The position numbers and the translations under genes are program-made. The notes below the pieces were generated by a model. That model was not told where the DNA came from, did no database searches, and saw only the letters and a list, made by a program, of their open reading frames with translations. A stretch of 64,000 bases of DNA from Candidatus Marinacidobacterium sp. (lineage in GTDB: Bacteria > Acidobacteriota > Vicinamibacteria > Marinacidobacterales > Marinacidobacteraceae), in assembly GCA_965220965.1 (NCBI GenBank), contig CBDCRI010000001.1, positions 293,532 through 357,531 on the forward strand, in the 5' to 3' direction. Of this stretch, positions 26,696 through 54,806 are shown piece by piece. The stretch's first letter is position 1, and each line of letters opens with the position of its first letter.

Positions 26696-26714
26696 CCCGA
26701 GAGTTTCCAACCAC

Positions 26715-27725: not shown

Positions 27726-27728
27726 ACC

Positions 27729-28391
27729 GTGGCTGCGGCCCTCTTCCCGTTTAAACTGACTGCGCTGTCGCCCTGGGCATGGCACGGGCTCGCCGTGCCA
27801 TCGGGAACCTCGACGCTGAACGATGTCGTCACCGACACCGCAATGGCGTTCGCGACGGCGGCGGCGCTGGGCATGATGCCCCGTTCGCCATGCCTGCCGT
27901 CGGCACCCGACTATCGGAACCACTTGGCCGCCTTGCCCTTCAAGACCGCGCTCTTCACGGGGACCGGCAACCGGCTCAACCGGCCATTGGCGCGCCGCCT
28001 CAACCTCGATCCGGAGTGCGGGATGCCGAAGAGCGTTCACGATGCACGCAACAGCGGCAACGTCAAGGACTACTTCCACATCCACGAGGTCGCGGCGGGA
28101 GCCGTTTTCCACGGGAGCTTTCTCCACGCCGATCCGATGGAGCTGGCATTCGAAGCCTATGGCGAGAGGCCGGAAGGGCTCGTCATCCGGCTGGGTTTGG
28201 GGAGAAACGGCATGGGACTCCTGCAGCGATGCGACGAACAGGCTCCCGTACGGCTCAATCTCCATACGGCGCAACTCTTCGATCCAGACGTCGATCTAAG
28301 GGCGGGGCCGTATCGCCTGCACAACATCCAGCCCAGCGAACCGCTGGATCCTGACGAGGCTTTGCGCATCACCGCCGGTTGGCATCGGTGA
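27729..28391 (+). CDS. cas5: Cas5 subunit (Csc1-like). Probable GTG start.
   Basis: 220 aa in the Cas5 position between cas7 and cas3'. Confidence 0.55.
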   Translation: MAAALFPFKLTALSPWAWHGLAVPSGTSTLNDVVTDTAMAFATAAALGMMPRSPCLPSAPDYRNHLAALPFKTALFTGTGNRLNRPLARRLNLDPECGMPKSVHDARNSGNVKDYFHIHEVAAGAVFHGSFLHADPMELAFEAYGERPEGLVIRLGLGRNGMGLLQRCDEQAPVRLNLHTAQLFDPDVDLRAGPYRLHNIQPSEPLDPDEALRITAGWHR

Positions 28392-28398
28392 ACGGACA

Positions 28399-30453
28399 GT
28401 GATCATCCGTTCCCATTCAGTGCGCATGCTGCCCAGCGGCCTGTCGCCAATGCAGCAAAGCTTGCTGGACTCGGAGCGATTCGTCCGGCTGGTGTCGGCG
28501 CCCACGGGCTCCGGAAAGTCCTACGCATTCATGCGCGCGGTGCTGGAGCGCGATGCGCGCGTGCTGTTCATCGTGCCCACGAAACGCCTGCTGCAGAACC
28601 TGATCGAGGATGCGCGTGAACAGGCGGACGAGCACTGGCGCGATCAGGGCCTCGACGAAGCGCGGCGCACCGCCTGGACCAATGAGCGAATTGTCGAGTG
28701 GTCCGGCAATCAGGCCGACGACGGCGGCGGGAGCCTGGCGGCCAAACGCGCCGGACAGCTCTTTTCGATCAGCGAAGAAAGAACCGGTGGGGTCATCTTC
28801 GCCATCCCTGAGGTGGTGGTCTCGTCGATCTCGGGAATCCGCATCAAGGGGGCAAGCGCAATCAACCCCTTCGAATTCGTGCACGCCTTCGACCATGTCG
28901 TGTTCGACGAGTTCCACACAATCGACGACCGCGCCTTTGGCCTGGCCAGCCTTCTGTCGCTGCTCGCGGTGACGCAACGGCAAGGCAAGGTGTCGCTGCT
29001 CTCCGCCACGCCGATAGACGTGACCGGAGTTCTTGCCCGGTGCGGCGTGGGGCCAGACAAGATCGAGAGCATCCCCGAGGAGATTGTCGATGGGCATCCG
29101 CCAGGGCATCGTGAGATACATGGCGACGTGTCGGTGTCCGTAGACCCGCGCACTTTGCCGGAATTGGTCGAGGCGAACATCGATTCCGTGCGAACCTCGG
29201 TCGCGGGCCAGCGCACGGTGATAGTCATCTACGACTCCCTGCAGCGCCTGCGGGAGGACGAGTCGAACCTGCGAGCGAAGCTTCGCGCCGCCGGCATCGG
29301 AGAGGACAGGATTTGCGCCATCAACTCCATCGAAGACTCCAGGCGGGCGCCAGACGAGCCCCGCCGCGGGCGAAGGTTTGCGGATCCGCGCGACTTCGAC
29401 GTGCTCATCTGCACATCGACCGTAGAAGTCGGCGTCACGTTCCGCAGCGATCTCATGTTCATGGAGCCCGGATTTGGAGAGGCCAGCTTCGTTCAGCGGG
29501 TGGGCCGAGTGTCGCGCGGCGCGGACGACGGGCAGGTCTTCGTGTCGTTGCCAGAACGCACGCGCGCGCGCAACGCATGGACACGACGTGTCGAGACCGT
29601 CATTCGGGAGAATGCGGAGCTGACGATTCAGGAGTTCACCGAGAATGTCCTTCGTGACGTTAGAAGGCGGCTTGAGCCGACGCGCAAGGAAGCCGAAGCC
29701 GACTGGTCCGCTCCCAACACCGCACTTTCGTTCTACCGGCGCCCCTCGTGGCGCGGCGCATTCTGGGCGGCGCTTTTCATTGTCGCGATCCGGCGGCAGA
29801 AAATGACGGTACAAAGGGCGGCGCGGGAGCGGCTGCGCGCGCTCTCGCCCAGCACCGTGAGGTTCGTCGACGCCAAGATCGGCGACATCATGTCCGTGGA
29901 TGCAGTGAACAACAACCTGCGCAGCGCGTCGCAGCCACACCGGGCATGGGCGAACGCTCTTCTTGCAAGCGCTCTGACCTACCGCGACATCGGCCGGACC
30001 ATCCGTGTTGTCGATCCCGACGGCTGCAGCCATGTGGTGTCGGAATCCTATCTCCGGCGAGCCACCGATGTTCTAAGGCGGCACATCGTTTCCGACGACA
30101 GCGGGGAACCTGTGATCCAATTGCTGTCCCGCAGCCTTCGGGAGGAGGAGAGCAAGGGGTCCTCCGGCCAGCCGAGGGCGCAGAGGATGACGCTCTACGT
30201 CCGTTCCCCGATCGGCGAAGGAGACTTCGCTCTGCCGATCTACGAACGGGAAAGGGGAACCGAGCAGCTCAACGTGCGTCTTGTCAAGGAATGGCGCAAT
30301 CAGTTCGCCAACTTCCTGCCAGCGCCGGGCGAGAAAGACATGCATCCGCGGAAGAAAGTGATGGCCGCCGCCACGGCACTGGTCGAGGTCATCGGCCGGC
30401 CGCCGCATGAAGAGGACTATGAGGATTCTGCAGAAAGCGCGATGTTTGCGTGA
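28399..30453 (+). CDS. cas3: Cas3' SF2 helicase (no HD domain).
   Basis: VSAPTGSGKSYAF (motif I), VVFDEFHTID (motif II), LLSATP (motif III), FVQRVGRVSRG (motif VI). No HD domain at either terminus. Confidence 0.8.
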   Translation: MIIRSHSVRMLPSGLSPMQQSLLDSERFVRLVSAPTGSGKSYAFMRAVLERDARVLFIVPTKRLLQNLIEDAREQADEHWRDQGLDEARRTAWTNERIVEWSGNQADDGGGSLAAKRAGQLFSISEERTGGVIFAIPEVVVSSISGIRIKGASAINPFEFVHAFDHVVFDEFHTIDDRAFGLASLLSLLAVTQRQGKVSLLSATPIDVTGVLARCGVGPDKIESIPEEIVDGHPPGHREIHGDVSVSVDPRTLPELVEANIDSVRTSVAGQRTVIVIYDSLQRLREDESNLRAKLRAAGIGEDRICAINSIEDSRRAPDEPRRGRRFADPRDFDVLICTSTVEVGVTFRSDLMFMEPGFGEASFVQRVGRVSRGADDGQVFVSLPERTRARNAWTRRVETVIRENAELTIQEFTENVLRDVRRRLEPTRKEAEADWSAPNTALSFYRRPSWRGAFWAALFIVAIRRQKMTVQRAARERLRALSPSTVRFVDAKIGDIMSVDAVNNNLRSASQPHRAWANALLASALTYRDIGRTIRVVDPDGCSHVVSESYLRRATDVLRRHIVSDDSGEPVIQLLSRSLREEESKGSSGQPRAQRMTLYVRSPIGEGDFALPIYERERGTEQLNVRLVKEWRNQFANFLPAPGEKDMHPRKKVMAAATALVEVIGRPPHEEDYEDSAESAMFA

Positions 30454-30982
30454 ACTGGCGGAGGAGCGCGGCCTGCACGGCCTTTACTTCCAGCATGTGG
30501 CCTTGTGCCGACGACGTGCCTGGCTGCACCTGATGGGCGCGACGCACGCCGCCCATCACTCTCGCGTCCAAAGGGGCCTTGCGCTGCATCAGACCGAGAA
30601 GCGCCCCGGAGAGGCGCCACGGGGACTTGGCATTGCGCCTGACGCAATCGACTTCAAGCGCCGCGTTGTCATCGAAAGGAAGGGGGGCGCCGGAGCAAGC
30701 GACGCGGTTTCCAGGCAGGCGCTGTTCTACGCCGCATTCATGACGGGAGCCTCCGGAGAGCACTGGCAAGCGGAGGTTCACGTCTACGGATCCCGCGCGA
30801 AGAGGACCTACCATCTCACTGAGGATGCGCTGGACCGGCTCATCCGCGACGCGCAGGAGAGCCGTGGCTTGGCAGCCGGGCCGGCGCCACCGGCCCGTCG
30901 CATTCCGCTCTGCGAAGCCTGCAGCTGCAATCCCCTGTGCTGGGATGAGGAGCATGATGGACACAGTGATCGTACCGCGTGA
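30407..30982 (+). CDS. cas4: Cas4 RecB-like nuclease with a 4-Cys cluster.
   Basis: DAIDF...VVIERK (D-ExK motif). Cys at the N-terminus plus CEACSCNPLC at the C-terminus. Confidence 0.8.
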   Translation: MKRTMRILQKARCLRELAEERGLHGLYFQHVALCRRRAWLHLMGATHAAHHSRVQRGLALHQTEKRPGEAPRGLGIAPDAIDFKRRVVIERKGGAGASDAVSRQALFYAAFMTGASGEHWQAEVHVYGSRAKRTYHLTEDALDRLIRDAQESRGLAAGPAPPARRIPLCEACSCNPLCWDEEHDGHSDRTA

Positions 30983-31925
30983 CGCACGGCTGAGCCGTCA
31001 CGAAAACGCGCTGGTGGTCCTGTCTGACGCTGGGCGCAAGGCGATTCCCCTGCACGGGGTAAAGCACGTCGTGTGCATGGGCGACGGTTCGATCTCCATT
31101 CGCCTGCTCAAGGACATGGGACGAAACGGCATTCGCTTCTCGGTGCTCGATGCAGGGGGACGATTTCTGGGCGCATTCGAGCCTGAGGATGAAACGCCTT
31201 CGGGCCGAGTCCGAGTCGGCCAAGCTTCGCTGTTTCTGGATGAGGCGGCCCGCCTTCGTCTGGCCAAGCTGATCGTGGCTGCGCAGGTGAAGTCCATGCG
31301 AGGGCTGCTGCAACGCTATCGGCGGAATGGCGTCACCGGCATCGAAGCATCCCTGGACGGCATTCAGAGCGCCCTCGCCCTGGCAAGTGAAGCCGCCAGC
31401 ATCGAGCAGCTCATGGGCGCAGAAGGGCATGCTCGCGCATTCCTGCACGATGCGTTCAAGGAGGTTTCAATGGATGCCCGCCTCGACCGCAGAGTTCGAC
31501 GTCCGCCTTCAGATCCCGTCAACTGCCTGATGTCGTTCTTCAACATGCTGCTCTACTCCGCGTGCGCGAGCGAACTCGCCAAGACCCACCTGGATCGGAG
31601 CATTTCGTTCCTTCATGCTCCAGGCACCGGCAGGCGTTCGCTCTCGATCGACATGGCCGAGAACTTCAGGCCGGTGTTGTCGGACGCCCTTCTGCTGTCC
31701 ATTTTTCGCCGGGGCCATGCGGACCGGTCATGGTTCGATCGGTCGCCCGGAGTATACCTGCTCAGCGAGAAGGGGCGAATCAAGGCCACGCAGCGCTTTT
31801 GGGGGCGCATCGAGGAAAGCGTCGGCGAACAGACGCTTCGGCAGGCGATCCACCGCCAGTGCCTGTCCTTGGAGCGCGAGGCGTTGGGAATCGGGCGGTT
31901 CAGGCCTTTCGTCTGGCGGGGTTGA
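30954..31925 (+). CDS. cas1: Cas1 integrase.
   Basis: 324 aa starting MMDTVIVPRDARL. Its position and length are typical for Cas1. Confidence 0.85.
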   Translation: MMDTVIVPRDARLSRHENALVVLSDAGRKAIPLHGVKHVVCMGDGSISIRLLKDMGRNGIRFSVLDAGGRFLGAFEPEDETPSGRVRVGQASLFLDEAARLRLAKLIVAAQVKSMRGLLQRYRRNGVTGIEASLDGIQSALALASEAASIEQLMGAEGHARAFLHDAFKEVSMDARLDRRVRRPPSDPVNCLMSFFNMLLYSACASELAKTHLDRSISFLHAPGTGRRSLSIDMAENFRPVLSDALLLSIFRRGHADRSWFDRSPGVYLLSEKGRIKATQRFWGRIEESVGEQTLRQAIHRQCLSLEREALGIGRFRPFVWRG

Positions 31926-31928
31926 TCG

Positions 31929-32228
31929 ATGTTCGTATTGGTTTCCTACGACGTGCCCGCCAAGCGAACGGCGATATTCAGGAAGCTGCTGAAGGGGTTC
32001 CTTGTGCACGAGCAGGCTTCCGTTTTCATGGGCGACCTGCCGGAGTCGGAACTCATCAAGTTGACTTCCGAGATATCGAACAAGATTGGACCGGATGATC
32101 GGATACTGAAGCTGGTGTGCCGAAACCGCCACAACGTGGAGGTGGAGCAGCTCAGCAAGGACGCCCTCGGAGGGCCGATGCGCCAGGACGAAGATGCGTG
32201 GCACGGAAAAAACTGGTCTGTGCTCTGA
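31929..32228 (+). CDS. cas2: Cas2.
   Basis: 99 aa starting MFVLVSYDV, the classic Cas2 N-terminus. Confidence 0.85.
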   Translation: MFVLVSYDVPAKRTAIFRKLLKGFLVHEQASVFMGDLPESELIKLTSEISNKIGPDDRILKLVCRNRHNVEVEQLSKDALGGPMRQDEDAWHGKNWSVL

Positions 32229-32357
32229 CCCATTCATTTACGCGCTTGGAAGAAAATCTGCCGATGGCCGGGCGTCAGGCGCAGTTTTCCAGCCTTTCCG
32301 GCGCGCAATGGTAACTACATGCTGCAATAGGGCAACAAAAACCCTATGATTTCGAGG
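32229..32357 (+). promoter_or_regulatory. CRISPR leader for array 1.
   Basis: AT-richer non-coding stretch between the cas2 stop and the first repeat. Confidence 0.5.
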
Positions 32358-33827
32358 GTTCCCAATCCCCATGAGGGGTAATGAGGAGGACGTTCGAACG
32401 AAGCTTAAGCAGCATACGTTGTTCCCAATCCCCATGAGGGGTAATGAGGAGGTTGTGGAGTACACCCAGAACCTAAAGAACATGAGTTCCCAATCCCCAT
32501 GAGGGGTAATGAGTACTGCGACCCGCCCTATGTCAACAGCGCCGTGAACGGTTCCCAATCCCCATGAGGGGTAATGAGCCCGTCAACCTGCCGAAGCGCA
32601 TCCCGTGGTTCAAAGTTCCCAATCCCCATGAGGGGTAATGAGCGGCAGCCTTGCGCTCGCGCTTGGCCGGTTGGTTCATGTTCCCAATCCCCATGAGGGG
32701 TAATGAGACGGACGCATTCACTCAAACCGTCAGCCAGAGCATAGGTTCCCAATCCCCATGAGGGGTAATGAGAAATGCTGAAAGGCGTGTACAAGTTGCT
32801 CAAGGAAAAGTTCCCAATCCCCATGAGGGGTAATGAGGGTTTGTTTCACCAATGAGGAAAGACAATGCTGCAAAGGTTCCCAATCCCCATGAGGGGTAAT
32901 GAGTATGCCGTGTACTGGATCAAGCAGGCCGTGCAGCGCAGCGGTTCCCAATCCCCATGAGGGGTAATGAGTATCCCGCTGTGGCGCATCACGGCGTAAG
33001 CCGTCTGACGTCGTTCCCAATCCCCATGAGGGGTAATGAGCAGCGACTTCTGAACCGAACTGCCGGCAAGCGTTCCCGGTTCCCAATCCCCATGAGGGGT
33101 AATGAGGTTCAGGTCGATGGTCATCGCAGCAACTCCAGCAGCACGTTCCCAATCCCCATGAGGGGTAATGAGTCTAGAGCAAGGAGGCTCTAAGCAATGG
33201 AGAACAAAGGGTTCCCAATCCCCATGAGGGGTAATGAGCCAGTTGCACTCAAGTATGAAGGCATCGCCGATCCGGGTTCCCAATCCCCATGAGGGGTAAT
33301 GAGATGCAAACCTTCACTTTCGCCGAAACCCCTGCCGGAACGTTTCCCAATCCCCATGAGGGGTAATGAGTTGGCCAGCCCTCGGCAATGCGGGTCAAGG
33401 ATGAGGTTGTTCCCAATCCCCATGAGGGGTAATGAGTTACGGACCGTGCTCTAGTCGCTTCGCGACCCAAGCCCTTTACCAATCCCCATGAGGGGTAATG
33501 AGATGGGAGCAGAGCCACCCGTAGAACTGCAGGACGGACAGTTCCCAATCCCCATGAGGGGTAATGAGGATGACAAGCTGAGGCGCAAGGACGCCTGCAA
33601 GGGTGGTTCCCAATCCCCATGAGGGGTAATGAGAGGGTGACGTGCCTTATGGCTTTTGGTACTGTGAGACGTTCCTAATCCCCATGAGGGGTAATGAGGA
33701 CTTCTGCGCCGACGTCGACGGGGGGCTGACGCGCGTTCCCAATCCCCATGAGGGGTACCCAGTTGAACGCTGACCGCTTCGAGGTTTGCGCGGCGGCCCG
33801 TTCCCACTCCCGATGAGGGGCATGGGT
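32358..33827 (+). CRISPR. CRISPR array 1: 23 copies of the 28-bp repeat GTTCCCAATCCCCATGAGGGGTAATGAG, with 32-37-bp spacers.
   Basis: Repeats counted directly, at 32358, 32421, 32486, 32551, 32615, 32680 and onward. The distal repeats degenerate (GTTTCCC.., GTTCCTA.., ..GGGGTACCCAG, GTTCCCACTCCCGATGAGGGGCATGGGT). Confidence 0.95.
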
Positions 33828-34162
33828 GGGGCCGGTGGCCGCGTTTATGGGTTATGGCCTTCGTGCGGTTCTCGCCGCGCCCTACCTCTTGATTGAGGGC
33901 AGCCAAGCCGGCGCGGCGGGCACTCGCGGACGGACGACTTTTCGCTGATTGCGGAGGCAATGGCCACCTGCGTCTCACCGTCGGTCCCCGACCTGCCGCC
34001 ATCGCCAAGTAGCGCTCAGTTGCGGTTGGAGCGGCGGCTTTGGGGAGAAAATCCGGGGGAAGTCAGCGCTAACTTAGGGCGACAGAGGCCTCCGCCCGGC
34101 GTAGGAGGCAACTGTGGTAGGCCTTGTGGCTTGGGCACGGAGCATTCCCCGCCGCCGGACGC

Positions 34163-34984
34163 TCAGGGCCGCATTGCCCCGCTTGCCGGCGGCGCTCCCC
34201 GCAGGCACTTCAGGTGGCTCTGCAGTTCGGCGTCGGCCTCCAGGTTGGCCATGAGCGCCAGCAGCACGTCGTCGAAGTCGCATCTTGGCCAGGCCAGGGT
34301 CTCGTCCGCCTCGAAAGTCTCGCGCCACGCCCTCTCCTGCTCCCCGTCGAAGTTGAGCGTCCAATCGTGCAGGCGGACCTTGTTGTCCAGCGTGATCGCG
34401 TCGCCGTGCTTGGCCGTCAGCCAAGCGGCGTCGTAGAGGTCCCTGGCCTGAACGCGCCGGTCATCTCCCACCAGCGCGTTCAGCTTGAGGCTGGCGAGCG
34501 TGGGCATGTCATAGACGGCGAGCCCGTCCACCATGACGATTCGGTCCTGGTCAAGGCGGGGCTTGCGGATGCCGTCGCGCACGTTGACGTCGATTTTGGC
34601 GCGGAAGGGCTCCGCGAATCCGGCGTGGCGGAACCAAAGGCGGACGTAGCCGCGCCCGTGCTGCTTGACGTCGAGCCGCTCGACTTCGAGGTCCTTGCGT
34701 TGCGCCAACGTCCTGCCGACCCTTTCCACCACGTCGACGCGCCTGGCCACGTCAAGGTCCAAGTCCATGGAAGGGCGCGTCAGCCCGTAGGCGGCCGCCA
34801 GCGCGGTCCCGCCCTTGAGCGCAAACCACCGCTGGCCCTGCGGCGGGCCAAGGGACAGCCCCCGGACGACATGGACCAGCACGCCCAGCAGGGCGCGCTC
34901 GCGGGGCGAGAGTGCAACCTCCGGCGGCGGCGTGCCGCCGGTCAAGTCGAAAGCCCGTGGCGCATGTGCGTTCCCTTCTCCCAA
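34163..34984 (-). CDS. Second AbiEii/DUF1814-family nucleotidyltransferase.
   Basis: WFALKGGTALAAAYGLTRPSMDLDLDV nucleotidyltransferase motif. Confidence 0.7.
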   Translation of the reverse strand: MGEGNAHAPRAFDLTGGTPPPEVALSPRERALLGVLVHVVRGLSLGPPQGQRWFALKGGTALAAAYGLTRPSMDLDLDVARRVDVVERVGRTLAQRKDLEVERLDVKQHGRGYVRLWFRHAGFAEPFRAKIDVNVRDGIRKPRLDQDRIVMVDGLAVYDMPTLASLKLNALVGDDRRVQARDLYDAAWLTAKHGDAITLDNKVRLHDWTLNFDGEQERAWRETFEADETLAWPRCDFDDVLLALMANLEADAELQSHLKCLRGAPPASGAMRP

Positions 34985-35574
34985 TCCGCATCCGGCGACA
35001 GGTCGCGCGTCCAGCGGCTCCAGAGTCGCAGCGCCTCCCCCTCAAGGGCCGCCGCCAAGGCGCGCACCAGCCGGTGGAGGTGCCCGAACTGGGCCTCAGT
35101 CCACAGCCACTTGGCCACCGAAGGCCCGTCGTAGGGGCCTGGGAAGCCCGTTGGCCGGCTGGCCAACCAGTCCCATGCGCCGTCCGCGATGGCCCGGTCA
35201 TGGCGCGCCGCCCACACGGGAGCCGCCGAGCTCCCCTGCGGGTGCCCGATCAGGCGCAGTGACGGCCGGGCGTCGAACAGCCGGTCCCAGCCAAGCAGAT
35301 TTGCCGGCGTGCGCAACGTGAAGCCGTTTCTGGCCTTGTTGGCGAGCAGCATCTCCATCCCGTTTCCGGTGCGGCCTTCGGCGGGAACGAACCAAGAGCC
35401 CTCGGCGTGCCAGTCGCCGCCTGACGGGCAGTCGGGATCGACGAGGTTGAGCGCATGAATGCCGGTCAGGTACTGGCTCACGCTGGTCGGGGGAATGCGA
35501 ACGGGAATGGCCTGCGCCCAGGCCGGCGCGGGCGCATCAGGGCCTCTTCGGGTCGGTTGGTGCCTGTCGGCCAT
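34942..35574 (-). CDS. Hypothetical protein immediately upstream of and overlapping the AbiEii-like gene; possible cognate antitoxin.
   Basis: 210-aa ORF whose 3' end overlaps the AbiEii-like start by ~40 nt. No AbiEi signature recognised. Confidence 0.3.
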   Translation of the reverse strand: MADRHQPTRRGPDAPAPAWAQAIPVRIPPTSVSQYLTGIHALNLVDPDCPSGGDWHAEGSWFVPAEGRTGNGMEMLLANKARNGFTLRTPANLLGWDRLFDARPSLRLIGHPQGSSAAPVWAARHDRAIADGAWDWLASRPTGFPGPYDGPSVAKWLWTEAQFGHLHRLVRALAAALEGEALRLWSRWTRDLSPDADWEKGTHMRHGLST

Positions 35575-35664
35575 GGCTTCACGGCTCCTGGGCGGTTGGC
35601 GCCGGACAGCGTATCACAGCGCTCCTGAAGGGCGCTCCCGCCCAGGCCCGGCCCAAGCGCCCCA

Positions 35665-36654
35665 TCAAGCCTGCGGCGCGCCCCCGCCGGCCAGCGCTGG
35701 CCGCGGACCCGACCCGGGGCGAGGCGCTTCCAGGATCGCCTCGCGGAGCATGCCGAACCGATGTTCGAGCTCCAACTGGACCGTGCCGGGCAGCAGCAGC
35801 TGGTTGCGCAGCCTGGCGGCAGGCAGGTCGAGCACGGTCAGCGGCGCGCCGCCCTCCCCGCCCTTAGCCAAGCCGATGACGAGGGCCTCCTTGCCGTCGG
35901 GCGCGCGCGAGGTCACGCAATCCTCGTCGTGCCAGTCCGCCGTCAGCCGGTCCAGAAGCGAAAGGCCCGTCTCCCCTGGGCTGAAGGACAGGCCGCGCCC
36001 GGGGAGGGCGCGCCGCCAGATGAAGCGGTTGCGGCGCTCGCCAAGGTCCAGCGCGAGCGCCCGAAGGGCCTTCAGGGCCTGCGAGTCGGGCCCTTCGGAC
36101 AGGCCGCGGCAGACGGCCAAGGCCATGTGGCCAACGACCTCCCCGGCGCGGCCGGCTTCGCCGGAGCGCACCGCCTCCAGCGCCAGCCGGCTGCAGTCCC
36201 GCACAACCTGCTTCGCGTACGTCGCTAGCGGCGGCCCGGCGGGATTGGCGTCCCCGGGCTGCGCGAGCTCGGCCAAGGGGGCCTCCAGCCGCTTGAACAG
36301 GGCCTTGACCTCGGCGGCGTAGGCCGCCTCCCGGCCCTTCGCGTCGGCGTCGGAGCCCTCCGGCCCGGCGGTCACCAACGGATAGCTCATGCGCAGGGCA
36401 ACGAAGGTCCGCGACCAGTCCGTGAGGGCCGCGGGGGCAGCCCTCAACTCGAGCCGGAGGCCGCCCGCGCCCTCCATGAACAGGGGGGCGTTCCGGGTTC
36501 CCTTGGGCATGGTGAGAAACTTCGCCTTGGCCTTGATGGCCCGCTCGACGAGGGCGCGTCCCTCGGCCAGCCCCTCTTCGGGCGCGGCCGCCTCGCCGAG
36601 GACGGACGCCCGATACCCATACTCGGACGCCAAGGCCTTGCGAACCATGCTCAT
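35665..36654 (-). CDS. Hypothetical protein.
   Basis: ~330-aa ORF starting MSMVRKALASEYGY. Confidence 0.4.
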   Translation of the reverse strand: MSMVRKALASEYGYRASVLGEAAAPEEGLAEGRALVERAIKAKAKFLTMPKGTRNAPLFMEGAGGLRLELRAAPAALTDWSRTFVALRMSYPLVTAGPEGSDADAKGREAAYAAEVKALFKRLEAPLAELAQPGDANPAGPPLATYAKQVVRDCSRLALEAVRSGEAGRAGEVVGHMALAVCRGLSEGPDSQALKALRALALDLGERRNRFIWRRALPGRGLSFSPGETGLSLLDRLTADWHDEDCVTSRAPDGKEALVIGLAKGGEGGAPLTVLDLPAARLRNQLLLPGTVQLELEHRFGMLREAILEAPRPGSGPRPALAGGGAPQA

Positions 36655-36879
36655 CTCGGTCTTTCCCTGGCGGCTCGGCTGGCCGTTCCGGCGCATTGTA
36701 GTGGCTCCCTGCCGAACCGGCCCGCCTGGGCCCCTGGCCCGCGGACGCACGGACGTTCGCCGAGGCCCCGCTCAAGGATCAGCCCCGCGGCTCGGAGCAG
36801 GCGGGCGGCATGCCGAGCCGTCCATGCGCTGAGCGGACAGGCCTCGGCCGGGCGTTGCGGCTTTCCCTAGGCGACGGAT

Positions 36880-37021
36880 GCCTCGAGCGGCGCGAGTCAA
36901 GGACTTGACGCTGGGCCTTCGCAACGTGTTGTAGACTGGGCGCCATTGGCCGTTTCGCCCCATGGTAGGAGACGACATCGAATTGACGAAAACAACTGCG
37001 GCTCAGGCGCTTAATCGATAG
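36880..37021 (+). promoter_or_regulatory. Original leader of the I-E-type array block; ends ...CTTAATCGATAGAGG.
   Basis: Homologous to the 3' ends of the three internal leader-like elements (TTGTA[GC]ACTGG ... CTTAA[TG][CG]GATAG[AG]G). Confidence 0.5.
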
Positions 37022-37412
37022 AGGCTGCCCCGCCCGTGCGGGGATGACCCCTCAGAAGCCTAGATTTTCATCACTTTCTGATAGGCTGCCCCGCCCCTGC
37101 GGGGATGAACCCAAACAGGCAGCCACGCACTTCGACGAATTGGCGGCCGCCCCGCCAGCGCGGGGATGGCCCTTGGAAACGGCGGGGTTGATCACTCGGG
37201 TGGAGGATGGCCCCGCCTGCGCGGGGATGGACCCTTCGGCGTGTGTTTCGACGGGCTTTTCATCGAGTTAGCCCCGCCTGCGCGGGGATGGACCCTCGGG
37301 TATTCCTCGTGAAATGCTTTTGGATCAATTAGCCCCGCCAGCGCGGGGATGAACCCACAGCCATGTTGCGACCGGCCGAAAGCTGGCGATGGCGCCGCCC
37401 ATGCGGGGATGG
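37022..37412 (+). CRISPR. CRISPR sub-array 2a: 7 degenerate 29-bp repeats, 61-bp period.
   Basis: Repeats of the form GGCTGCCCCGCCCGTGCGGGGATGACCC and TAGCCCCGCCTGCGCGGGGATGGACCC at a 61-bp period. Confidence 0.85.
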
Positions 37413-37948
37413 GGCCAGGCTTCTGTTGAAGCCTCGGCGAGGGGTCGCCGCGTGCCTGTCAGAGCGGGCGCGGACCGCAAAGCGGCCGCGCCGCATGCTT
37501 CGGTTCGCGGCCGGCGTGCATGCCACGTCCCCACCGGGTTTTCGCGAGGCGCCAGAGGCAGGCATGGGAGGCCGCTGAACCGTCGCTTGCCGCCTATGCC
37601 TGCCTCGACGTAAAGCCTGGGAAGCCCGCCCCTAAGTCAGGGAAGGCCCGGCGGTGGGGGCCCGACTTTCGGCGTGCCTGTCGCGCTCAAGGATCAGGGT
37701 GCCGGTCCGGGCGCGCTCCCACCCAGGATGGCCCATCCATGCCGTGACCGGGGAGGCTCCGTCCGATGACGCGGCCGGCTCGGCGCCGGCCTGCCACGCC
37801 GACCGATGGCGGTGGCGGCGGTGAGGAGCCGATCCCTGGCGCTGGGCCCACGCCAGGTGTTGTACACTGGCGGCGTTGCGCCGTTCATGGGGGAAATCGA
37901 TTTAACGGATCAGACATTGTGAGTTTCAACAAGGACTTAATGGATAGG
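37413..37948 (+). repeat. Leader-like duplicated element A (~536 bp).
   Basis: Begins inside a truncated repeat (..GGGGATGG|GGCCAGGCTTCTGTTGAAGCCTCGGCGAGGGG). Ends with a leader-like 3' end abutting a consensus repeat. Confidence 0.8.
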
Positions 37949-38157
37949 GTCGGCCCCGCCAGCGCGGGGATGGGCCTTTGCCGCCGCACATGTCGATGAG
38001 GCGCGAGCCGTTAGCCCCGCCAGCGCGGGGATGGTCCCCGAGGTGAGACGGCCATTAGGTCGGAAGAAGAAGTTAGCCCCGCCCGAGCGTGGATGGCCCC
38101 TCGATTCGGACGCAGCTTGGTCTAATTGCTTCGTTAGCCCCGCCAGCGCGGGGATGG
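37949..38157 (+). CRISPR. CRISPR sub-array 2b: 4 repeats.
   Basis: GTCGGCCCCGCCAGCGCGGGGATGGGCC, then three copies of GTTAGCCCCGCC.GCG.GGATGG. Confidence 0.85.
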
Positions 38158-38592
38158 AGCGAGCCTTCTGTTGCAGCCTCGGCGAGGGGAGGCTCTGTAC
38201 CTGCCAGAATGGGCACGGACCGCGCGGATCACAAACAATGTCCGCCTCGACGTCAAGCGAAGGAAGCCCGCCACGATGTCAGGGAAGGCACGGCGGAGGC
38301 GGCCCTGACTCTCGGCGTGGCTGTCGCGCTCAGGGATCAGGTTGCCGGTCCGGGCGCGCTCCCACCCAGGATGACCCGTCGATGCCGTGACCGGGGAGGC
38401 CCAGTCCGATGACGCGGCCGGCTCTGCGCTGGCCTGCCACGCCGACCGATGGCGGTGGCGGCGGCGAGGAGCCAAGCCCTGACGCCTGGCCTTCGACATG
38501 TGTTGTACACTGGAGGCGCGCCGTTCATGGGGGGAGGATATCGAGTTAACCGATCAGACATTGTGAGTTGCAACAAGGGCTTAAGGGATAGG
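38158..38592 (+). repeat. Leader-like duplicated element B (~435 bp; lacks a ~110-bp internal segment present in A and C).
   Basis: AGCGAGCCTTCTGTTGCAGCCTCGGCGAGGGG ... TTGTACACTGG ... CTTAAGGGATAGGG. Confidence 0.8.
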
Positions 38593-39044
38593 GTTGGCCC
38601 CGCCAGCGCGGGGATGGACCCCTCTTGAACACCATCGGCGCAACGCTCAAGCCGTTGGCCCCGCCAGCGCGGGGATGGACCCGCTATGTTGGGGAAGGGT
38701 GTCTCGTCGAGAAGGTTGGCCCCGCCTGCGCGGGGATGGACCCCTCTTGGCAAAGATGAATTTTGCCACGCAATCGTTGGCCCCGCCTGCGCGGGGATGG
38801 ACCCTGCATTCGACGGCAGCTTGCTCTCATTGCTTCGTTGGCCCCGCCAGCGCGGGGATGGACCCCTCATTGAAATGATGACCAGTGACTCCACCGAGCT
38901 TGCCCCGCCCGAGCGGGGATGATCCCTTGAGAAAGTGGCCAGCGACGCCAATGCTCCAGTTGGCCCCGCCCGCGCGGGGGAGAGCCCGTTGCATGTTGAC
39001 GCCGCGATCGCGAGCGAAGCTTTGCCCCGCCCACGCGGGGATGG
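38593..39044 (+). CRISPR. CRISPR sub-array 2c: 8 repeats.
   Basis: GTTGGCCCCGCC[AT]GCGCGGGGATGGACCC at a 61-bp period. The last repeats degenerate. Confidence 0.9.
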
Positions 39045-39592
39045 AGCGAGGCTTGTGTTGCAGCCTCGGCGAGGGGAGCCTCTCCAACTGCCAGAACGTG
39101 CTCGGATCGCTTGGATCGCAAAGCGGCCGCGCCACAAGCTTCGGTTCGCGGCCGGCGTGCATGCCACGTCCCCACCCAGGTTTTCGCGAGGCGCCCGAGG
39201 CTGGCTTTGGCGGCCGCTGAGCCGTCGCCTGCCGCCAATGCCTGCCTCGACGTCAAGCGAAGGAAGCCCGCCCCCGGAAGTCAGGGAAGGCCGGCGGTGG
39301 GGCCCCGGCCTTCGGCGTGCCTGTCGCGCACAAGGATCAGGTTGCCGGTCCGGGCACGCTCCCACCCAGGATGACCCGTCGATGCCGTGACTGGGGAGGC
39401 CAAGCCCAATGGCGCGGTTGGCTCGGAGCCGGCCTGCCATGCCGACCGATGGCGGTGGCGGCGGCGAGGAGCCAACCCCTGACGCCTGGCCTGCGCCATG
39501 TGCTGTACACTGGAGGCGCGCCGTTCATGGGGGGAGGCTATCGAGTTAACGGATCAGACATTGTGAGTTGCAACAAGGGCTTAAGGGATAGG
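39045..39592 (+). repeat. Leader-like duplicated element C (~548 bp).
   Basis: Near-identical to A over most of its length. Confidence 0.8.
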
Positions 39593-40292
39593 GTTGGCCC
39601 CGCCTGCGCGGGGATGGACCCACAAGAACCGCCTATGATGGATCTTGAGGCCGGTTGGCCCCGCCTGCGCGGGGATGGACCCTCGTGGAACATCCGCGTT
39701 GGGTAAGCGCGCGTGTTGGCCCCGCCTGCGCGGGGATGGACCCTTTCTAAACGGAAGTTGTGTCGCAGTTGTGTGGTTGGTCCCGCCGGCGCGGGGATGG
39801 ACCCGAGAAGGGAGCGACATCAGGTCGGAAGAAGAAGTTAGCCCCGCCTGCGCGGGGATGCACCGGAGTCCAAGACCGCCTGTGTGCCTGCAGCGCGATT
39901 GCCCCGCCCGAGCGGGGATGGGCCGTTGGATGAGCAGGTCCTTTCCCGCAAGGCAAAGTTGGCCCCGCCCATGCGGGGATGGCCCGCATTCAAAAACCGC
40001 ATGCGCGCCTGCGTTGCGCCGGCCCCGCCCTTGCGGGGATGGTCCCTATGACGATGTGACGCTGCAGACAGCAGAGGAGCGTTGGCCCCGCCTGTGCGGG
40101 GATGAACCCACTCCTCGGTCCGCTTTGCCCACTGCACGGCTTCGCTGGCCCCGCCCAAGCGGGGATGGCCCTTTGTCCAAGACCGCATGCGTGGCTGCAG
40201 CGCCTTGGCCCCGCCCGTGCGGGGATGATCCCGGCGCGCAGTGGATGGCGCCTGCCTTCGTCGGTTTGGCCCCGCCCGCGCGCTCCCCGCGT
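39593..40292 (+). CRISPR. CRISPR sub-array 2d: ~12 repeats, the terminal repeat degenerate.
   Basis: GTTGGCCCCGCCTGCGCGGGGATGGACCC at a 61-bp period, ending in ..CGCGCTCCCCGCGTCC. Confidence 0.9.
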
Positions 40293-40476
40293 CCGCTTCG
40301 GACCCGCGAAAGCTGCGGCTGCGCCACGCGCCGCCGGAGAAGGCCCTTGCTGGCAAAGGCCTCCCGGCAGCCGGCCGGGACCGCCCGTGAACCCGAACCC
40401 GCCATGGCCGCCTGCGGGCGCGAAGGCGGCGGGATTTGCTTCAATCCGCCCTGAACACTTCCGGAGCGGACGCCCG

Positions 40477-41649
40477 ATGAACGACGCCGACATCCTCCCC
40501 GCCCCCCGCATCGCCGATGCCTCCGACGCCTTGCACAGCTGGCTGCGGTCGCACCTTGCCGTCCCCACCAAGGCGAGGATGTGGGGCGTGGAGGGAACCT
40601 TCACCCCGCCGCTGTCCAGGGCGGTCTACGGGGACGGCGGCGCCATCCTCTGCGTCTGCGACAGGCGCGCCCGCCCCGCCTTCTGGCAGGTGCGCATCGA
40701 CAGCAAGTGGCGCATCGGGACCGAGCCCGGCCGCGACCACGCCGCCCTCGACTTGGGCAAGGCCATCCGCGAGATCGCGGCCAACTTGGCGGCTGAGTTC
40801 GCGCCCCTGGACACCGAGGTCGAGGCCGCGGAGGAGAAGGCCCAGCAGGCGGACGACGAAATCGATTGGATGCGGGACTGCGACCCGGAGGCGGCCTTCA
40901 TGGACCCAGGCCTTCCCAGGGACGCGCACGGCAACTTGGCGATCGACATCAGCGACGGCGTGATGTTCTGGCGCGGCGGCGCGACCGCCGCGCCGACGGC
41001 CGTGCGCCACTGCGCGTTCGGCGAGGCGGGCGTCGGCGAGCTCGACGTGATGCACCACGGGATCGTGGAGCCGGTCAGGATCGGGGGCGTCCTAGTGATG
41101 CCCCGCGTCGCGGACGCCTCCGAGGCCGAGCACCTGCGCCTGCAGGCGCTCCTGTGCGCGCCTCGGGAGGGGCGCCTTTGGGAGCACTCCCGGCCGGTCA
41201 AGTTCACGCCAGCGCTGTCGCGCGCGGTCTACGGCGACGGCAAGGGCCTCATCGGCATCACGACCATCAGCGACCGGCCGCGGTACTGGCTGGTGCGCAT
41301 CGACAGCCAGTGGATGGTGCCGGGCCGCAGCTGCGACGCCGAGCGCCGGCTGCCCCCCGACGCGCCGGACGTGGGCGAGGCCATGGAGGGCATAGAGGTG
41401 AACCTCATCGCTGAGTTCGGCTCCTCCGACCCGGAAGCCTACCTCGACGATGAGATCGCCGACTGCGACGACTGCTGCGGCCGCGGGTGCGACGCCTGCG
41501 CCCACACCGGCTACGGGCCCGAGGGCACGCCGCCGGACTTCCCGGCCATCGATCTGACCGACGGGACCAGCTGGTGGCGCGAGGACTACCCGGCGCCGTC
41601 CGCGGACGCCCGGCCGCGCAAGGCGCGCCTTCCCGCCCCCGCCGTCTAG
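40477..41649 (+). CDS. Hypothetical protein with an internally duplicated ~100-aa domain and a C-terminal Cys-rich motif.
   Basis: Duplicated W..EG.FTPPLSRAVYGDGGAILCV.DRRARPAFWQVRIDSKW / W.HSRPVKFTPALSRAVYGDGKGLIGI..ISDRPRYWLVRIDSQW. C-terminal CDDCCGRGCDACAHTGYG...FPAIDLTDGTSWWREDYP. Confidence 0.55.
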   Translation: MNDADILPAPRIADASDALHSWLRSHLAVPTKARMWGVEGTFTPPLSRAVYGDGGAILCVCDRRARPAFWQVRIDSKWRIGTEPGRDHAALDLGKAIREIAANLAAEFAPLDTEVEAAEEKAQQADDEIDWMRDCDPEAAFMDPGLPRDAHGNLAIDISDGVMFWRGGATAAPTAVRHCAFGEAGVGELDVMHHGIVEPVRIGGVLVMPRVADASEAEHLRLQALLCAPREGRLWEHSRPVKFTPALSRAVYGDGKGLIGITTISDRPRYWLVRIDSQWMVPGRSCDAERRLPPDAPDVGEAMEGIEVNLIAEFGSSDPEAYLDDEIADCDDCCGRGCDACAHTGYGPEGTPPDFPAIDLTDGTSWWREDYPAPSADARPRKARLPAPAV

Positions 41650-41726
41650 GCCGTAGGCGCCGGCCGCGGCACCGTTGGTGGCGCGCTTCCTACAATCTCG
41701 GGCATCGCTTCACGTGGGGGGCCGAC

Positions 41727-42842
41727 ATGCCCGACCCGGCAGGCAGCAGGGCGCCATGCGGGCGCCTGGAGGACGCCGTCATCGACGGCGACCGGTTTTC
41801 GCCGCGGACCGCCGCCCCGTCGGACGCCGAGCACGGGCGCTGGCGCGCGCTGCTGGAGGCGCCGACCAGGGCCAAGGTCTGGGGCGCGGGGCCGGAGCGG
41901 GCGTTCATCCCGCCGCTCTCCTCGACCGTGTACGGCGACGGCGAGGCGGTCCTGTGCGTGTCGCCCATCAAGTCGCGGCCGGCCTTCTGGCAGGTGCGCA
42001 TCGACAGCGAGTGGCGCCATGGCGACGGCGGCGGCCCGCCGCGGCGCAACAGCGACGTGGCCCAGGGGGTCCACGCGATCGCCCGCAACCTCGCGCGGGA
42101 GTTCGGCGCCGCGTTCGACCTCTCCGAAGGCTTCTCGTGGCAGCGCGGCGGCCCCGACGCCGCCGTCCCGAGGGATCCGGACAAGCCGCACTACCACCCG
42201 GTCCTGCGCTTCGGCCTCGAAGCGCCGGGCGCGATGGCGCGCAGCGAGCTCGACGGGAGGCTTGGGCACGTGGACGTGGGCCCGGGGAACGCCCTGCGGT
42301 CCGCCGAGGCCATCGCGGTCTGCCCGCGGGTCGCGGACGCCGCCGACGTCGAGCACGAGCGGCTGCGCGCCGCGCTGTGCGTGCCCCAGACGGGAGAGCT
42401 GCGGGGCCAGCCGGTCGAGTTCACGCCGCCGCTGTCCAATGCCGTGTACGGGGACGGACGCGCGCTGCTGTGCGTCTCCACCCGCAACGACCGCCCCAAG
42501 CACTGGCTGGTCCGCATCGACAGCCAATGGCGGGTCGTTGGGGATCCGCACCTGCCGCCGGACGCGCCCGATGTCAAAGGGATGATCCTGGCCATCCTCG
42601 ACAACCTAGAGGCGGAGTTCGGCGACGGCGGCCTCAACAGCCGCTTCACCGGGAAGCGCTGCGGCGCCTGCCCCGCTGAAGGCGCCTGCGAGTCCTGCCA
42701 GGGATGCGGCTTCGAGCCTTGCTGCGAGCCGCCCGAGTTTCCGGCGATCGACACCTCCGTCGGCTTCGGCTACTGGCGGCAGGACTACCCGCAGCCGCCT
42801 GCCCCGAGGCGGCTCCCCAACGCTTCCGCCTGTGGGCCGTAA
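41727..42842 (+). CDS. Paralog of the preceding gene.
   Basis: Same duplicated domain (FIPPLSSTVYGDGEAVLCVSPIKSRPAFWQVRIDSEW ...). C-terminal CGACPAEGACESCQGCGFEPCCEPPEFPAIDTSVGFGYWRQDYP. Confidence 0.55.
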   Translation: MPDPAGSRAPCGRLEDAVIDGDRFSPRTAAPSDAEHGRWRALLEAPTRAKVWGAGPERAFIPPLSSTVYGDGEAVLCVSPIKSRPAFWQVRIDSEWRHGDGGGPPRRNSDVAQGVHAIARNLAREFGAAFDLSEGFSWQRGGPDAAVPRDPDKPHYHPVLRFGLEAPGAMARSELDGRLGHVDVGPGNALRSAEAIAVCPRVADAADVEHERLRAALCVPQTGELRGQPVEFTPPLSNAVYGDGRALLCVSTRNDRPKHWLVRIDSQWRVVGDPHLPPDAPDVKGMILAILDNLEAEFGDGGLNSRFTGKRCGACPAEGACESCQGCGFEPCCEPPEFPAIDTSVGFGYWRQDYPQPPAPRRLPNASACGP

Positions 42843-44366: not shown

Positions 44367-44445
44367 AATCGAATCAAAAAGACGGCGTTTTTGATTCGAT
44401 TAGGGGGCTTAATCGCATCAAAAAACGCTATTATTTGATTCGATT
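44367..44445. promoter_or_regulatory. Two 35-bp palindromic operator-like sites (AATCGAATCAAAAA-N7-TTTTTGATTCGATT and AATCGCATCAAAAAAC..TTATTTGATTCGATT) upstream of the Fic gene.
   Basis: Near-perfect inverted repeats in an AT-rich island 20-100 bp upstream of the ATG at 44464. Confidence 0.6.
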
Positions 44446-44463
44446 AGCGGGAGAACGTCGATC

Positions 44464-45696
44464 ATGTGGATGTGGGAGAGGCCGGACTGGCCGGAATTCA
44501 GGTTCGAGGAGGGTCGCTTGGCGGACGCCATGAGGCGCTTCGCGGAGGCGGACGCGGGTCTCGTCGGCCGCTCGGAGGGCTTCGGGGACGAGTGGCGCCG
44601 GGAGCTGGCCGTCGAGCTGATGTTCGCCGAGGCGCTGGCGTCGCACGCCATCGAGGGCGAGGCGCTTGACAGCGAGTCGGTGCGCTCGTCGCTGCTGCTG
44701 GCCCTGGGGGGGCTGTCGGAGAGCCCGCGCCGGGACCCCCGGATCGCCGAGGGCGGCGCCGTCGCCCTGATCCTGGACGCGCGGCGCCATTGGGACCAGC
44801 CCCTGACCAAGCAACGGCTGTGCGCCTGGCAGTCGATGGCGCTCGCCGGCCGGGCGAAGCCCACTCTGGAGGTCGGCGACTACCGGAGCGGCCCGGAGAA
44901 GATGGGCATCGTCAGCGGCAACGGCAGCCTGCACGGGTTCAAGCCCATGCGCGTGCACTACGAGGCGCCGCCCTCCGACCGCGTGCCCGCCGAGATGGCC
45001 CGCTTCCTTGAGTGGTTCAACGCCTCGCGCGGGCGCATCAACGGCCTGGCGCGCACGGCGGTGGCCCACCTCTGGTTCGAGAAGATCCACCCGTTCGACG
45101 ACGGCAACGGCCGCGTCGGGCGGGCGCTGGCGGACCTGGCGGCCTCGCAGGCGCTCGGGCGCCCGACGCTGTCGTGCCTGGCCACGGCCATCAACCAGGA
45201 CCGCGACCCCTACTACCGCGCCCTGGAGCAGGCCGGCCGGGACGGCATGGACGTCAACCCCTTCCTCGACTACTTCGCGGGCGTGGCGCTGCGCGCCCAG
45301 GAGATCGCCCTTCGGGAGGTGCGCTTCGTGCTCGGCAAGGCGCGCTTCTTCAGCCGCTTCGACGCCCGGCTCAACGCCCGGCAGCGCAAGGCGGCGCTGC
45401 GCGTCTTCGCCGAGGGCTCCAAGGGCTTCGCCGGCGGCCTGTCGCGCAACAACTACCAAGCCATCACCAAGGCCTCCAGCGCCACCGCCACCCGCGACCT
45501 CGCCGACCTGGTGCGCATCGGCGCCATGACATCGGCCGGCGAGGGCCGCAGCGTGCGCTACGCGCTGGCGACCGACCCGCCCCAGCACCTGCTGCTGGAG
45601 GCGCTCGCGGACGGCGCGCCCGCCGGCGCCGCCCCCGAGGCCGAAGCGCACGGCCAGCCGCGGCGCCGGTCGAGGAGCGCCTCCCCAGGCCCCTGA
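44464..45696 (+). CDS. Fic/Doc-family protein (AMPylation-type motif) with a DUF4172-like N-terminus.
   Basis: HPFDDGNGRVGRAL (Fic motif HPFx[DE]GNGR). N-terminal MWMWERPDWPEF. Confidence 0.8.
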   Translation: MWMWERPDWPEFRFEEGRLADAMRRFAEADAGLVGRSEGFGDEWRRELAVELMFAEALASHAIEGEALDSESVRSSLLLALGGLSESPRRDPRIAEGGAVALILDARRHWDQPLTKQRLCAWQSMALAGRAKPTLEVGDYRSGPEKMGIVSGNGSLHGFKPMRVHYEAPPSDRVPAEMARFLEWFNASRGRINGLARTAVAHLWFEKIHPFDDGNGRVGRALADLAASQALGRPTLSCLATAINQDRDPYYRALEQAGRDGMDVNPFLDYFAGVALRAQEIALREVRFVLGKARFFSRFDARLNARQRKAALRVFAEGSKGFAGGLSRNNYQAITKASSATATRDLADLVRIGAMTSAGEGRSVRYALATDPPQHLLLEALADGAPAGAAPEAEAHGQPRRRSRSASPGP

Positions 45697-54042: not shown

Positions 54043-54806
54043 ATGGCGACATCCGGGACCCGCATGACCCCGGACGAGGCCCGCGAGGCCATCCTCGGCG
54101 GCGCCTGCCCCGACGGCGCCCAGTCCGCGAGGCCGGCCCGATCCGCCTGCCCGCCGGCCTCACGGTGGAGGGCGGCCTGCACGCCAACGAGTGCCCGGGG
54201 CTCAGGCACCTGCCGCGGGGGCTGTCGGCGGCGTCGGTGGCCGTCGAGGCCTGCGCGGCCTTCGAGGGCTTCGATCCCGAGTTCGAGGGGGCCTTCCGCG
54301 TGCCCGGGAACGCCCACTTCCTCGCGTGCCACGCCCTGGCCCGGTTCCCGGAGGAGGTCGCGGTCGGGGGACACTTCGACCTCACGCGCTGCGCGCGCGC
54401 CTGGGCGGGGCCGTCCGGGACGCCGAGAAGGCTCACGGCGGGAGGCAGGGCGGTCCTCACCGGATGCGCGGGGCTCAGCGAGCTGCCGGAGGAGATGGCG
54501 GTCGGCCAGGCCCTGCTGCTGATCAAGTGCCCGAGCCTGCGCAGCGTGCCCCATGGCGAGGGGGCGGGCGCCCCCCGCGCGGGCGCCTACGCCGGCATCT
54601 TCCGCTGCGACGGCCTGGAGCGCGTTGACGGGATCTCGTTCGAGCCGGGCGGCGTCCTGGAGGTGGTGGGCTGCCGCAGGCTCAGGTCCATCGGCGACGG
54701 CGCGCGGCCGGAACGGCTGTCCGTGGAGGGCTGCCCGCTGCTGGAGCGGCTGCCGCAGCGGCCGGCCTCCCGCCCCGCCTCCCGCAAAGGCCCGCCGTTG
54801 CCCTGA
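54043..54806 (+). pseudogene. Frameshifted cassette-family member P8.
   Basis: The N-terminus MATSGTRMTPDEAREAILGGACPDGAQ runs in one frame. The LRR-like body (ECPGLRHLPRGLSAASVAVEACAAFEGF...CPLLERLP) lies in another frame from ~54165. The frame switch is near 54125. Confidence 0.6.

Follow-up and report, generated by a model that had tools for sequence, protein, structure and literature searches.

In a 64,000-nt stretch of a Candidatus Marinacidobacterium sp. contig (CBDCRI010000001.1), referred to below as the window and supplying all positions given here, four co-oriented CRISPR arrays with type I-E repeats follow one another head to tail, each behind its own leader, with no I-E cas gene found in the window. 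The best account of the locus as a whole is a tandem duplication of leader-array units, followed by acquisition of further spacers at the individual leaders and by service in trans of these cas-distal arrays; we give this reading a probability of roughly 60%. Its parts differ in firmness. The anatomy of the arrays, the class of their repeats, the homologies between modules, the lack of I-E cas genes within 64 kb and the position-specific conservation of the repeats are directly observable; crossing over, post-duplication acquisition and present-day service in trans are inferred.

Scanning 36800-40400 position by position with the consensus GTTGGCCCCGCC[T/A]GCGCGGGGATGGACCC returned 30 full 29-nt repeats, with a period of 60-63 nt (mostly 61), and a truncated 31st copy at 40265-40282. 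The spacers between them number 27, with a length of 32 nt in 21 cases and of 31-34 nt in the remainder. Together with spacer comparison, the scan delimits four blocks on the plus strand: M1 (37023-37416, seven repeats and six spacers), M2 (37949-38161, four repeats of a GTTAG variant and three spacers), M3 (38593-39048, eight repeats and seven spacers) and M4 (39593-40282, 11 full repeats, a truncated twelfth and 11 spacers). The initial annotation had described four leader-array units of 7, 4, 8 and 12 repeats; alignment of the leaders and inter-array elements upholds the units, and the counts are correct if the truncated copy is included in the last. Consensus repeats stand at the left end of both M3 and M4 and variant repeats at the right end. 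The first five repeats of M3 match the consensus apart from loop position 13, and its distal repeats depart from it only outside the hairpin core. The first repeats of M1 and M2 carry seven and four mismatches to the consensus, respectively; the first two or three repeats of M1 form a distinct variant (GGCTGCCCCGCCC.TGCGGGGATGA.CCC), followed by near-consensus repeats 4-6. A 13-kb contig from a separate low-coverage long-read assembly (ENA ERZ26695579) is identical to window positions 31912-42218 save for ten single-base G/C indels, and the tandem arrangement is thus not a product of mis-assembly.

The consensus repeat folds into a six-base-pair CCCCGC/GCGGGG stem with a 4-nt loop (positions 6-21), followed by an 8-nt 3' tail, AUGGACCC, which would become the 5' handle of the mature RNA. 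Minimum-free-energy prediction gives this stem-loop for the consensus as well as for three degenerate variants, and all six stem pairs are intact in 28 of the 30 repeats. The repeat of E. coli K-12 is also 29 nt long, has its stem in the same register and alternates with 32-nt spacers. When part of M4 was searched by blastn against 72,556 plasmids, matches appeared in the same 61-nt register, and two of the matching arrays were inspected, on Acidiphilium cryptum pACRY02 (repeat GTGTTCCCCGCAGGCGCGGGGATGAACCG) and Bosea sp. RAC05 pBSY19_1 (repeat GGCTCCCCCGCACGCGCGGGGATGGACC). Each of them starts some 55-60 nt past the cas2e stop codon of a complete, annotated I-E operon (cas3-cse1-cse2-cas7e-cas5e-cas6e-cas1e-cas2e), on the strand equivalent to the plus strand of the window. 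Because repeat architecture and the context of these plasmid arrays match, the sequences assign the arrays studied here to the type I-E repeat class, with a left-to-right orientation and a leader to the left of each block; the positions of consensus and variant repeats in M3 and M4 agree with this orientation. The I-E family membership proposed in the initial annotation is thereby borne out by repeat length, spacer length, hairpin and plasmid context alike. Among GTDB representative genomes the only exact match to the repeat lies in a Nocardiopsis array with a 61-nt period (repeat GTGCTCCCCGC[C/A]CGCGCGGGGATGGACC, ending GGGGATGGACC), which is I-E-like as judged from array form alone. At E <= 1 or at the gathering score, the 29-nt repeats find no counterpart among Rfam families, a result that is not decisive because the Rfam CRISPR-DR models cover only some repeat variants.

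The DNA between the arrays is present in three homologous copies. Element A (37417-37948, plus strand, 532 nt), element B (38162-38592, plus strand, 431 nt) and element C (39049-39592, plus strand, 544 nt), delimited by alignment to one another, align end to end at 77-93% identity, and all three are non-coding. Each element begins right after the ..GGGGATGG of a terminal repeat, that of M1 directly adjoining A, and stops at the first repeat of the next block. The junction, ..GGGGATGG|AGCGAG, lies at one repeat position in all three cases, with the variant GGCCAG between M1 and A. In A a GC-rich (guanine- and cytosine-rich) 5' half precedes a leader formed by the 3' ~250 nt, with the block GTGTTGTACACTGG at 37857-37870 and a GC content of 45% in the last 75 nt; C is likewise composed of a 5' half and a leader, with GTGCTGTACACTGG at 39500-39513. 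The last 75 nt of the elements are AT-richer throughout (45-53% GC versus ~70% elsewhere in the elements), and this leader-proximal stretch is also the best conserved between B and C. The leader part of B is 93% identical to that of C, their last 40 nt being identical, while the upstream halves agree at 82%. Element B lacks ~110 nt present in A and C, as had been noted before and as the alignment confirms. The leaders of the elements end in CTTAA(G/T)GGATAGG beside the repeat, a sequence similar to the leader-repeat junctions of Bosea and Acidiphilium (..AAGAG/..TAGAG). An inverted repeat of 18-19 bp, 89% complementary with a 16-nt loop, is kept in A (37555-37606) and C (39196-39249), and its left arm lies in the segment missing from B.

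The leader of M1 stands apart from the other three. It was placed at 36771-37022 on the plus strand by four-way alignment, local-alignment z-scores and GC content, and has a conserved block GTGTTGTAGACTGG at 36926-36939, the junction motif CTTAATCGATAGAG beside the first repeat and a GC content of 53% in its last 75 nt. Its homology is restricted to the 3' ~250 nt of the elements, with ~59-60% identity, z-scores of 5.7-9.3 against shuffles and the common blocks GCTCAAGGATCAG, GTGTTGTAsACTGG, ATCGAnTTrAC and CTTAAnnGATAGnG. Neither the flank upstream of M1 nor the one downstream of M4 has a detectable counterpart of the 5' 170-290 nt of the elements, alignment scores being no better than those of shuffles. 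The initial annotation held that every element ends in the same leader-proximal sequence as that upstream of M1; this was too strong, as the likeness amounts to only ~60% over ~250 nt with short motifs in common. Since the elements are 77-93% identical among themselves and their 5' half has no counterpart at M1, the alignments indicate that the other three leaders were not copied from that of M1. The accompanying statement that a pristine repeat follows each element is accurate for B and C and fails for A, given the four mismatches in the first repeat of M2.

Copies of the same spacers link the modules to one another. An all-against-all comparison, for which the maximum score of the shuffle null was 7, recovered the pairs M4s5 and M4s10 (score 21), M2s3 and M3s4 (19), M2s2 and M4s4 (17.5), M4s7 and M4s10 (11.5), and M4s5 and M4s7 (11), numbered by module and spacer. 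Homologous spacers differ at 16-32% of positions (24% pooled), and the 76-84% identity of shared spacers is close to the 77-93% identity of the elements, so that the divergence of the two is similar. M2s2 and M4s4 are both followed by the rare GTTAG repeat variant, which is unique within M4; spacers 5, 7 and 10 of M4 are three diverged copies of one spacer, all of the atypical length of 31 nt, and the repeats around M4s7 and M4s10 carry similar variants. The GTTAG variant, the 31-nt length and the similar flanking repeats argue for copying rather than for independent acquisition from the same protospacer. Head-to-tail copies, a single novel junction and co-duplicated content of similar divergence are what is expected of a tandem duplication, and with diverged spacer copies spread over different modules, whole leader-array units were evidently duplicated. 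As judged from the spacers, the copied unit is the leader plus part of its array, which amends the earlier description of a duplication of the leader plus upstream region: M2s2 and M4s4, as well as M2s3 and M3s4, show that array was copied too. Leader-proximal to the shared spacers, each internal module also holds spacers of its own, one in M2 and s1-s3 in both M3 and M4, and in the latter two modules these private spacers sit between consensus repeats.

These relationships may be united in a model in which the four arrays would be transcribed from left to right on the plus strand, each from its own leader. The ancestral locus would have consisted of M1 and one downstream array, with distantly related leaders and ~0.5 kb between them. 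An internal repeat of the downstream array would then have undergone unequal homologous recombination with the terminal repeat of the upstream one, duplicating the inter-array DNA, the leader and the leader-proximal part of the array and leaving behind a hybrid terminal repeat ending in ..GGGGATGG|AGCGAG, and a further exchange of this kind, or one between element copies, would yield the third unit, with A, B and C each followed by an array. Crossing over is proposed because the junction recurs three times at the same repeat position, because the terminal repeat of M2 is a hybrid of an M2-type 5' part (GTTAG..CAGC) and the common 3' end (..ATGG|AGCGAG), because the end of M4 is different, running into unique sequence without the AGCGAG junction, and because the leader of M1 is distant. 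After duplication, each leader would have remained an integration site for the Cas1e-Cas2e integrase, accounting for the private spacers of M2, M3 and M4, and older parts of the arrays may have been reworked by inter-repeat deletions and small internal duplications. The first repeats of M1 and leader 1 appear to represent a different I-E array lineage that was joined to repeats of the GTTAG/GTTGG type by recombination between repeats. The 5' end of these first repeats (37023-37173) resembles a Bosea repeat, GGCTCCCCCGC.

Substitutions are unevenly distributed over the repeats. Across the 30 repeats, the core formed by positions 5-12 and 16-24 (GCCCCGCC...GCGGGGATG) is changed at 5 of 510 sites, compared with 99 of 360 at the other twelve positions (Fisher p = 1.5e-35). 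Among the 18 degenerate-looking repeats, changes affect 1.3% of core sites and 42% of the rest. Variant repeats do occupy the distal ends of M3 and M4, in line with the degenerate trailer repeats of the initial annotation, but with a nearly unchanged hairpin core they are not decaying freely. No change is seen at any of 224 sites outside loop position 13 in the eight leader-proximal repeats of M3 and M4, while the leaders of B and C differ at 7%. Purifying selection on the hairpin of the CRISPR RNA precursor (pre-crRNA) leaves a signature of this kind, here over a time in which about a quarter of neutral sites changed, and we infer that after the last duplication the arrays were subject to I-E machinery for adaptation and processing. 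Selection would hold constant the hairpin (CCCCGC-N4-GCGGGG) and the AUG that follows it, and it is this constancy that leads to the proposal that a Cas6e-type nuclease cuts the transcripts and that a Cascade complex encoded elsewhere in the genome takes up the products, as happens with E. coli CRISPR-II.

Several observations nevertheless weigh against duplication followed by continued service in trans. M3 and M4, whose leaders are the most similar (93%), have no clear spacer in common, their best pair scoring 6.0, at the edge of the null; additional spacer deletions or gene conversion between leaders must therefore be assumed, and the pattern of spacer sharing, as read from the sequence, does not fit a simple two-step duplication. 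Conservation of the hairpin is evidence of past selection rather than of present function. No I-E cas gene is found in the window by NCBIfam or Pfam, and no sigma-70-type promoter is predicted in any of the leaders. Comparison of the array region with 50,697 phage records gave only chance-level matches (E >= 1), and the four newest spacers, searched with every sixth base left free, have no match in IMG/VR; with no protospacer found, there is neither a protospacer-adjacent motif nor evidence of recent targeting. The leader-repeat junction motif is absent from GTDB representative genomes, JGI metagenomes and IMG/VR, and a search of the same three collections for the exact repeat returned only the unrelated Nocardiopsis array. 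Within the window the spacers have no self-targets.

An alternative is that the arrays are an orphan relic, the I-E cas operon having been lost from the lineage and the four modules being non-functional, drifting and recombining. This is possible but unlikely. In its favour, not even a fragment of an I-E cas gene lies within the 64 kb, only 8 of the 30 repeats are consensus-like, compared with 20 of 23 identical repeats in the neighbouring I-D-type array, the ~24% divergence of duplicated spacers indicates an old locus with slow turnover, and protospacers are missing from the phage records and, for the four newest spacers, from IMG/VR. However, neutral decay gives no such restriction of changes to positions outside the hairpin and AUG as the degenerate repeats display. 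Further points against a relic are the private leader-proximal spacers between pristine repeats in M3 and M4 and the identity of the B and C leaders in their last 40 nt, given upstream halves that agree at only 82%. Because of the near-invariant hairpin core and the private leader-proximal spacers of internal modules, the evidence at hand favours arrays that were served in trans, at least until recently, over a neutral relic, although the cas genes may have been lost very recently.

A second source of machinery to be considered is the I-D-like system next door, whose Cas6 would process the transcripts and whose Cas1-Cas2-Cas4 would fill the arrays. In agreement with the initial annotation, I-E cas genes are lacking nearby: in addition to the NCBIfam and Pfam results, tblastn of all eight Acidiphilium I-E proteins against the 64 kb gave no match (best E about 0.1), and the only cas operon in the window is I-D-like and has an array of its own. 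The operon (~22.9-32.2 kb) encodes Cas6, Csc2/Cas7d, Cas3', Cas4, Cas1 and Cas2, together with a 1006-aa large subunit without a family match and a 220-aa protein, Cas6 being known by its C-terminal domain. Its array at 32358-33827 comprises 23 repeats of 28 nt (GTTCCCAATCCCCATGAGGGGTAATGAG), of which 20 are identical, with spacers of ~35-41 nt. Proximity of cas1, cas2 and cas4, just 5 kb upstream, and a C4/G4-based hairpin followed by an 8-nt tail in both repeat types could be taken as signs of shared use. The I-D-like repeat is, however, unrelated to the one studied here, and the strict 31-34-nt spacers and 61-nt period of M1-M4 are typical of Cas1e-Cas2e, making use of the I-E-type arrays by this system very improbable. 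The lower GC content of the I-D island (57-65% over 22179-33827, versus 72-75% in its flanks) points in the same direction, as it was probably acquired separately. The 508-aa open reading frame assigned to Cas6 overlaps a WYL-domain gene on the minus strand (22023-22871), and its true start therefore probably lies much later.

It is likewise highly unlikely that the four arrays were acquired independently and juxtaposed by transfer or rearrangement, or that an assembly artefact brought them together, rather than that they were duplicated in situ. The M1 leader and first repeats are indeed a different variant, probably of separate origin, and the locus lies within a defence island; against this, A, B and C show full-length collinearity and a single common junction, the modules have spacers in common and the independent long-read assembly reproduces the structure. 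Least credible of all is the insertion, three times at one repeat position of a long array, of a miniature inverted-repeat transposable element (MITE) or small insertion sequence (IS) with a leader-like sequence: three similar elements of 430-545 nt do occupy an identical repeat position, but, as the initial annotation also held, they lack terminal inverted repeats and target-site duplications at their junctions, have no further copy in the window and no match in the 72,556 plasmids, show no coding signal (codon periodicity of substitutions between copies, p = 0.76, 0.77 and 0.05), have a 3' half homologous to the M1 leader, end exactly at a first repeat and were copied together with segments of array, so that an IS or MITE identity is largely refuted. 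The starts of the elements contain no conserved RNA structure or terminator, with folding z-scores of -0.07 to -1.8 and unconvincing covariation.

Duplicated and cas-distal arrays have precedents, against which the present locus can be set. In E. coli, the I-E arrays CRISPR2.2 and CRISPR2.3, 0.5 kb from each other, are cas-distal and need the cas-E genes of a different locus (PMC3903273). This CRISPR-II locus resembles the one described here in having I-E class arrays away from cas-E, with a co-oriented pair ~0.5 kb apart, a leader beside the active array and service of the pair in trans by the distant cas-E operon (PMC3903273). It differs in that here there are four arrays rather than two, each with a leader, the inter-array DNA is present three times and modules have common spacers. 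The isolated CR3 array of P. aeruginosa has been read as a duplicate of a leader and minimal array that acquires spacers and acts in trans (PMC13142298). CR3 is thus also a leader-array duplicate away from cas, with a nearly identical leader, yet it belongs to another subtype (I-F), is dispersed rather than in tandem and has almost no shared spacers, unlike the diverged shared spacers found here. In a 2026 survey, multi-array genomes are traced, among other origins, to the duplication of arrays or of fragments of them, and I-E array pairs are noted to be almost always co-oriented (PMC12814883). The canonical I-E loci of pACRY02 and pBSY19_1 agree with M1-M4 in repeat architecture, 61-nt period and orientation, and their AT-rich leaders of ~60 nt end in an (A/T)AGAG-like motif before the first repeat; they consist, however, of a single array directly after cas2e, whereas tblastn finds not even a cas2e remnant in or beside any leader here.

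A further parallel is a plasmid of Streptomyces albidoflavus (NZ_CP109244, 97779-128180), where at least four co-oriented I-E arrays each follow the same 61-nt leader (copies at 1877-1937, 9233-9293, 14761-14821 and 24454-24514 of that stretch), with 96-98% identity among copies over a 91-nt leader-plus-repeat stretch. Duplicated upstream DNA of up to 300 nt, overlapping fragments of a lasso-peptide B2 gene, is common to the leader sites at 1877, 9233 and 14761 and to a region at 21946-22245, which lies ~2.2 kb upstream of the fourth leader, at 24454; the annotation of the 30 kb examined includes no cas gene. Repeated duplication of leader plus array with no I-E cas gene near is common to both loci. 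In the plasmid, however, the modules lie several kb apart with genes between them, the repeats are uniform and the leaders nearly identical, which indicates recent duplication, whereas here the next unit directly abuts the terminal repeat and the copies are old (7-23% diverged). What sets the present locus apart from all of these comparators is its compactness and the age of its copies, with diverged shared spacers still visible.

No new mechanism or system is involved: earlier work has described arrays distant from cas, duplicated leaders and I-E loci with several arrays, and the locus, though real, represents a fairly ordinary mode of CRISPR evolution. Its value lies in being a clean natural example of array multiplication, probably by repeat-mediated unequal exchange that copied the leader together with the young end of an array, in a sequence that also appears to record separate spacer uptake at each new leader afterwards. 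It further illustrates that degenerate trailer repeats can retain the crRNA hairpin despite divergence at about a quarter of neutral sites, and this retention is a practical criterion for distinguishing dead relics from arrays with current or recent service in trans. It is tempting to go further and regard tandem amplification as a selected strategy rather than an accident of recombination, although this seems improbable. Were it so, the gain would be more promoters and integration sites, with old spacers brought back near a leader, so that a long immune memory would continue to be expressed well in a lineage with its Cascade genes at another site, and the conserved 5' half of the elements would serve as an insulator or terminator between transcription units.

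The wider setting of the arrays is an island of defence and toxin-antitoxin genes. Positions 1-21900 and 54800-56500 encode an SNF2 helicase, a PDZ-M48 peptidase, a zeta-toxin-like ATPase, an RlaP nucleotidyltransferase and a HipA-like kinase; a 1735-aa DEAD+UvrD fusion helicase is found at 3696-8903, and two AbiEi/AbiEii pairs at 8884-10673 and 34163-35574. Just upstream of leader 1, on the minus strand, lies a gene (35665-36696) with a strong coding signal (GC content at third codon positions 0.89), whose 343-aa product has no Pfam or NCBIfam match and no homologue but itself among 5.8 billion proteins. Directly downstream of M4, two paralogous genes on the plus strand (40477-41649 and 41727-42842) encode proteins without a Pfam match that have an internally duplicated domain with the motif VYGDG..(L/I)......RP.(F/Y/H)W.VRIDS.W and a Cys-rich C-terminus. 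They have only five distant homologues (225-247 aa), one of which is encoded beside an MmeI-type restriction-modification gene and an IS21 element, with no CRISPR array there. Further downstream, a 44-nt AT-rich tandem repeat of 1.9 copies (44367-44451), containing the palindrome AATCGAATCAAAAA..TTTTTGATTCGATT, stands just upstream of a DUF4172-Fic gene (44464-45696) and looks like an operator. The best homologues of the Fic protein, at no more than 49% identity, come from Proteobacteria, mostly Alphaproteobacteria.

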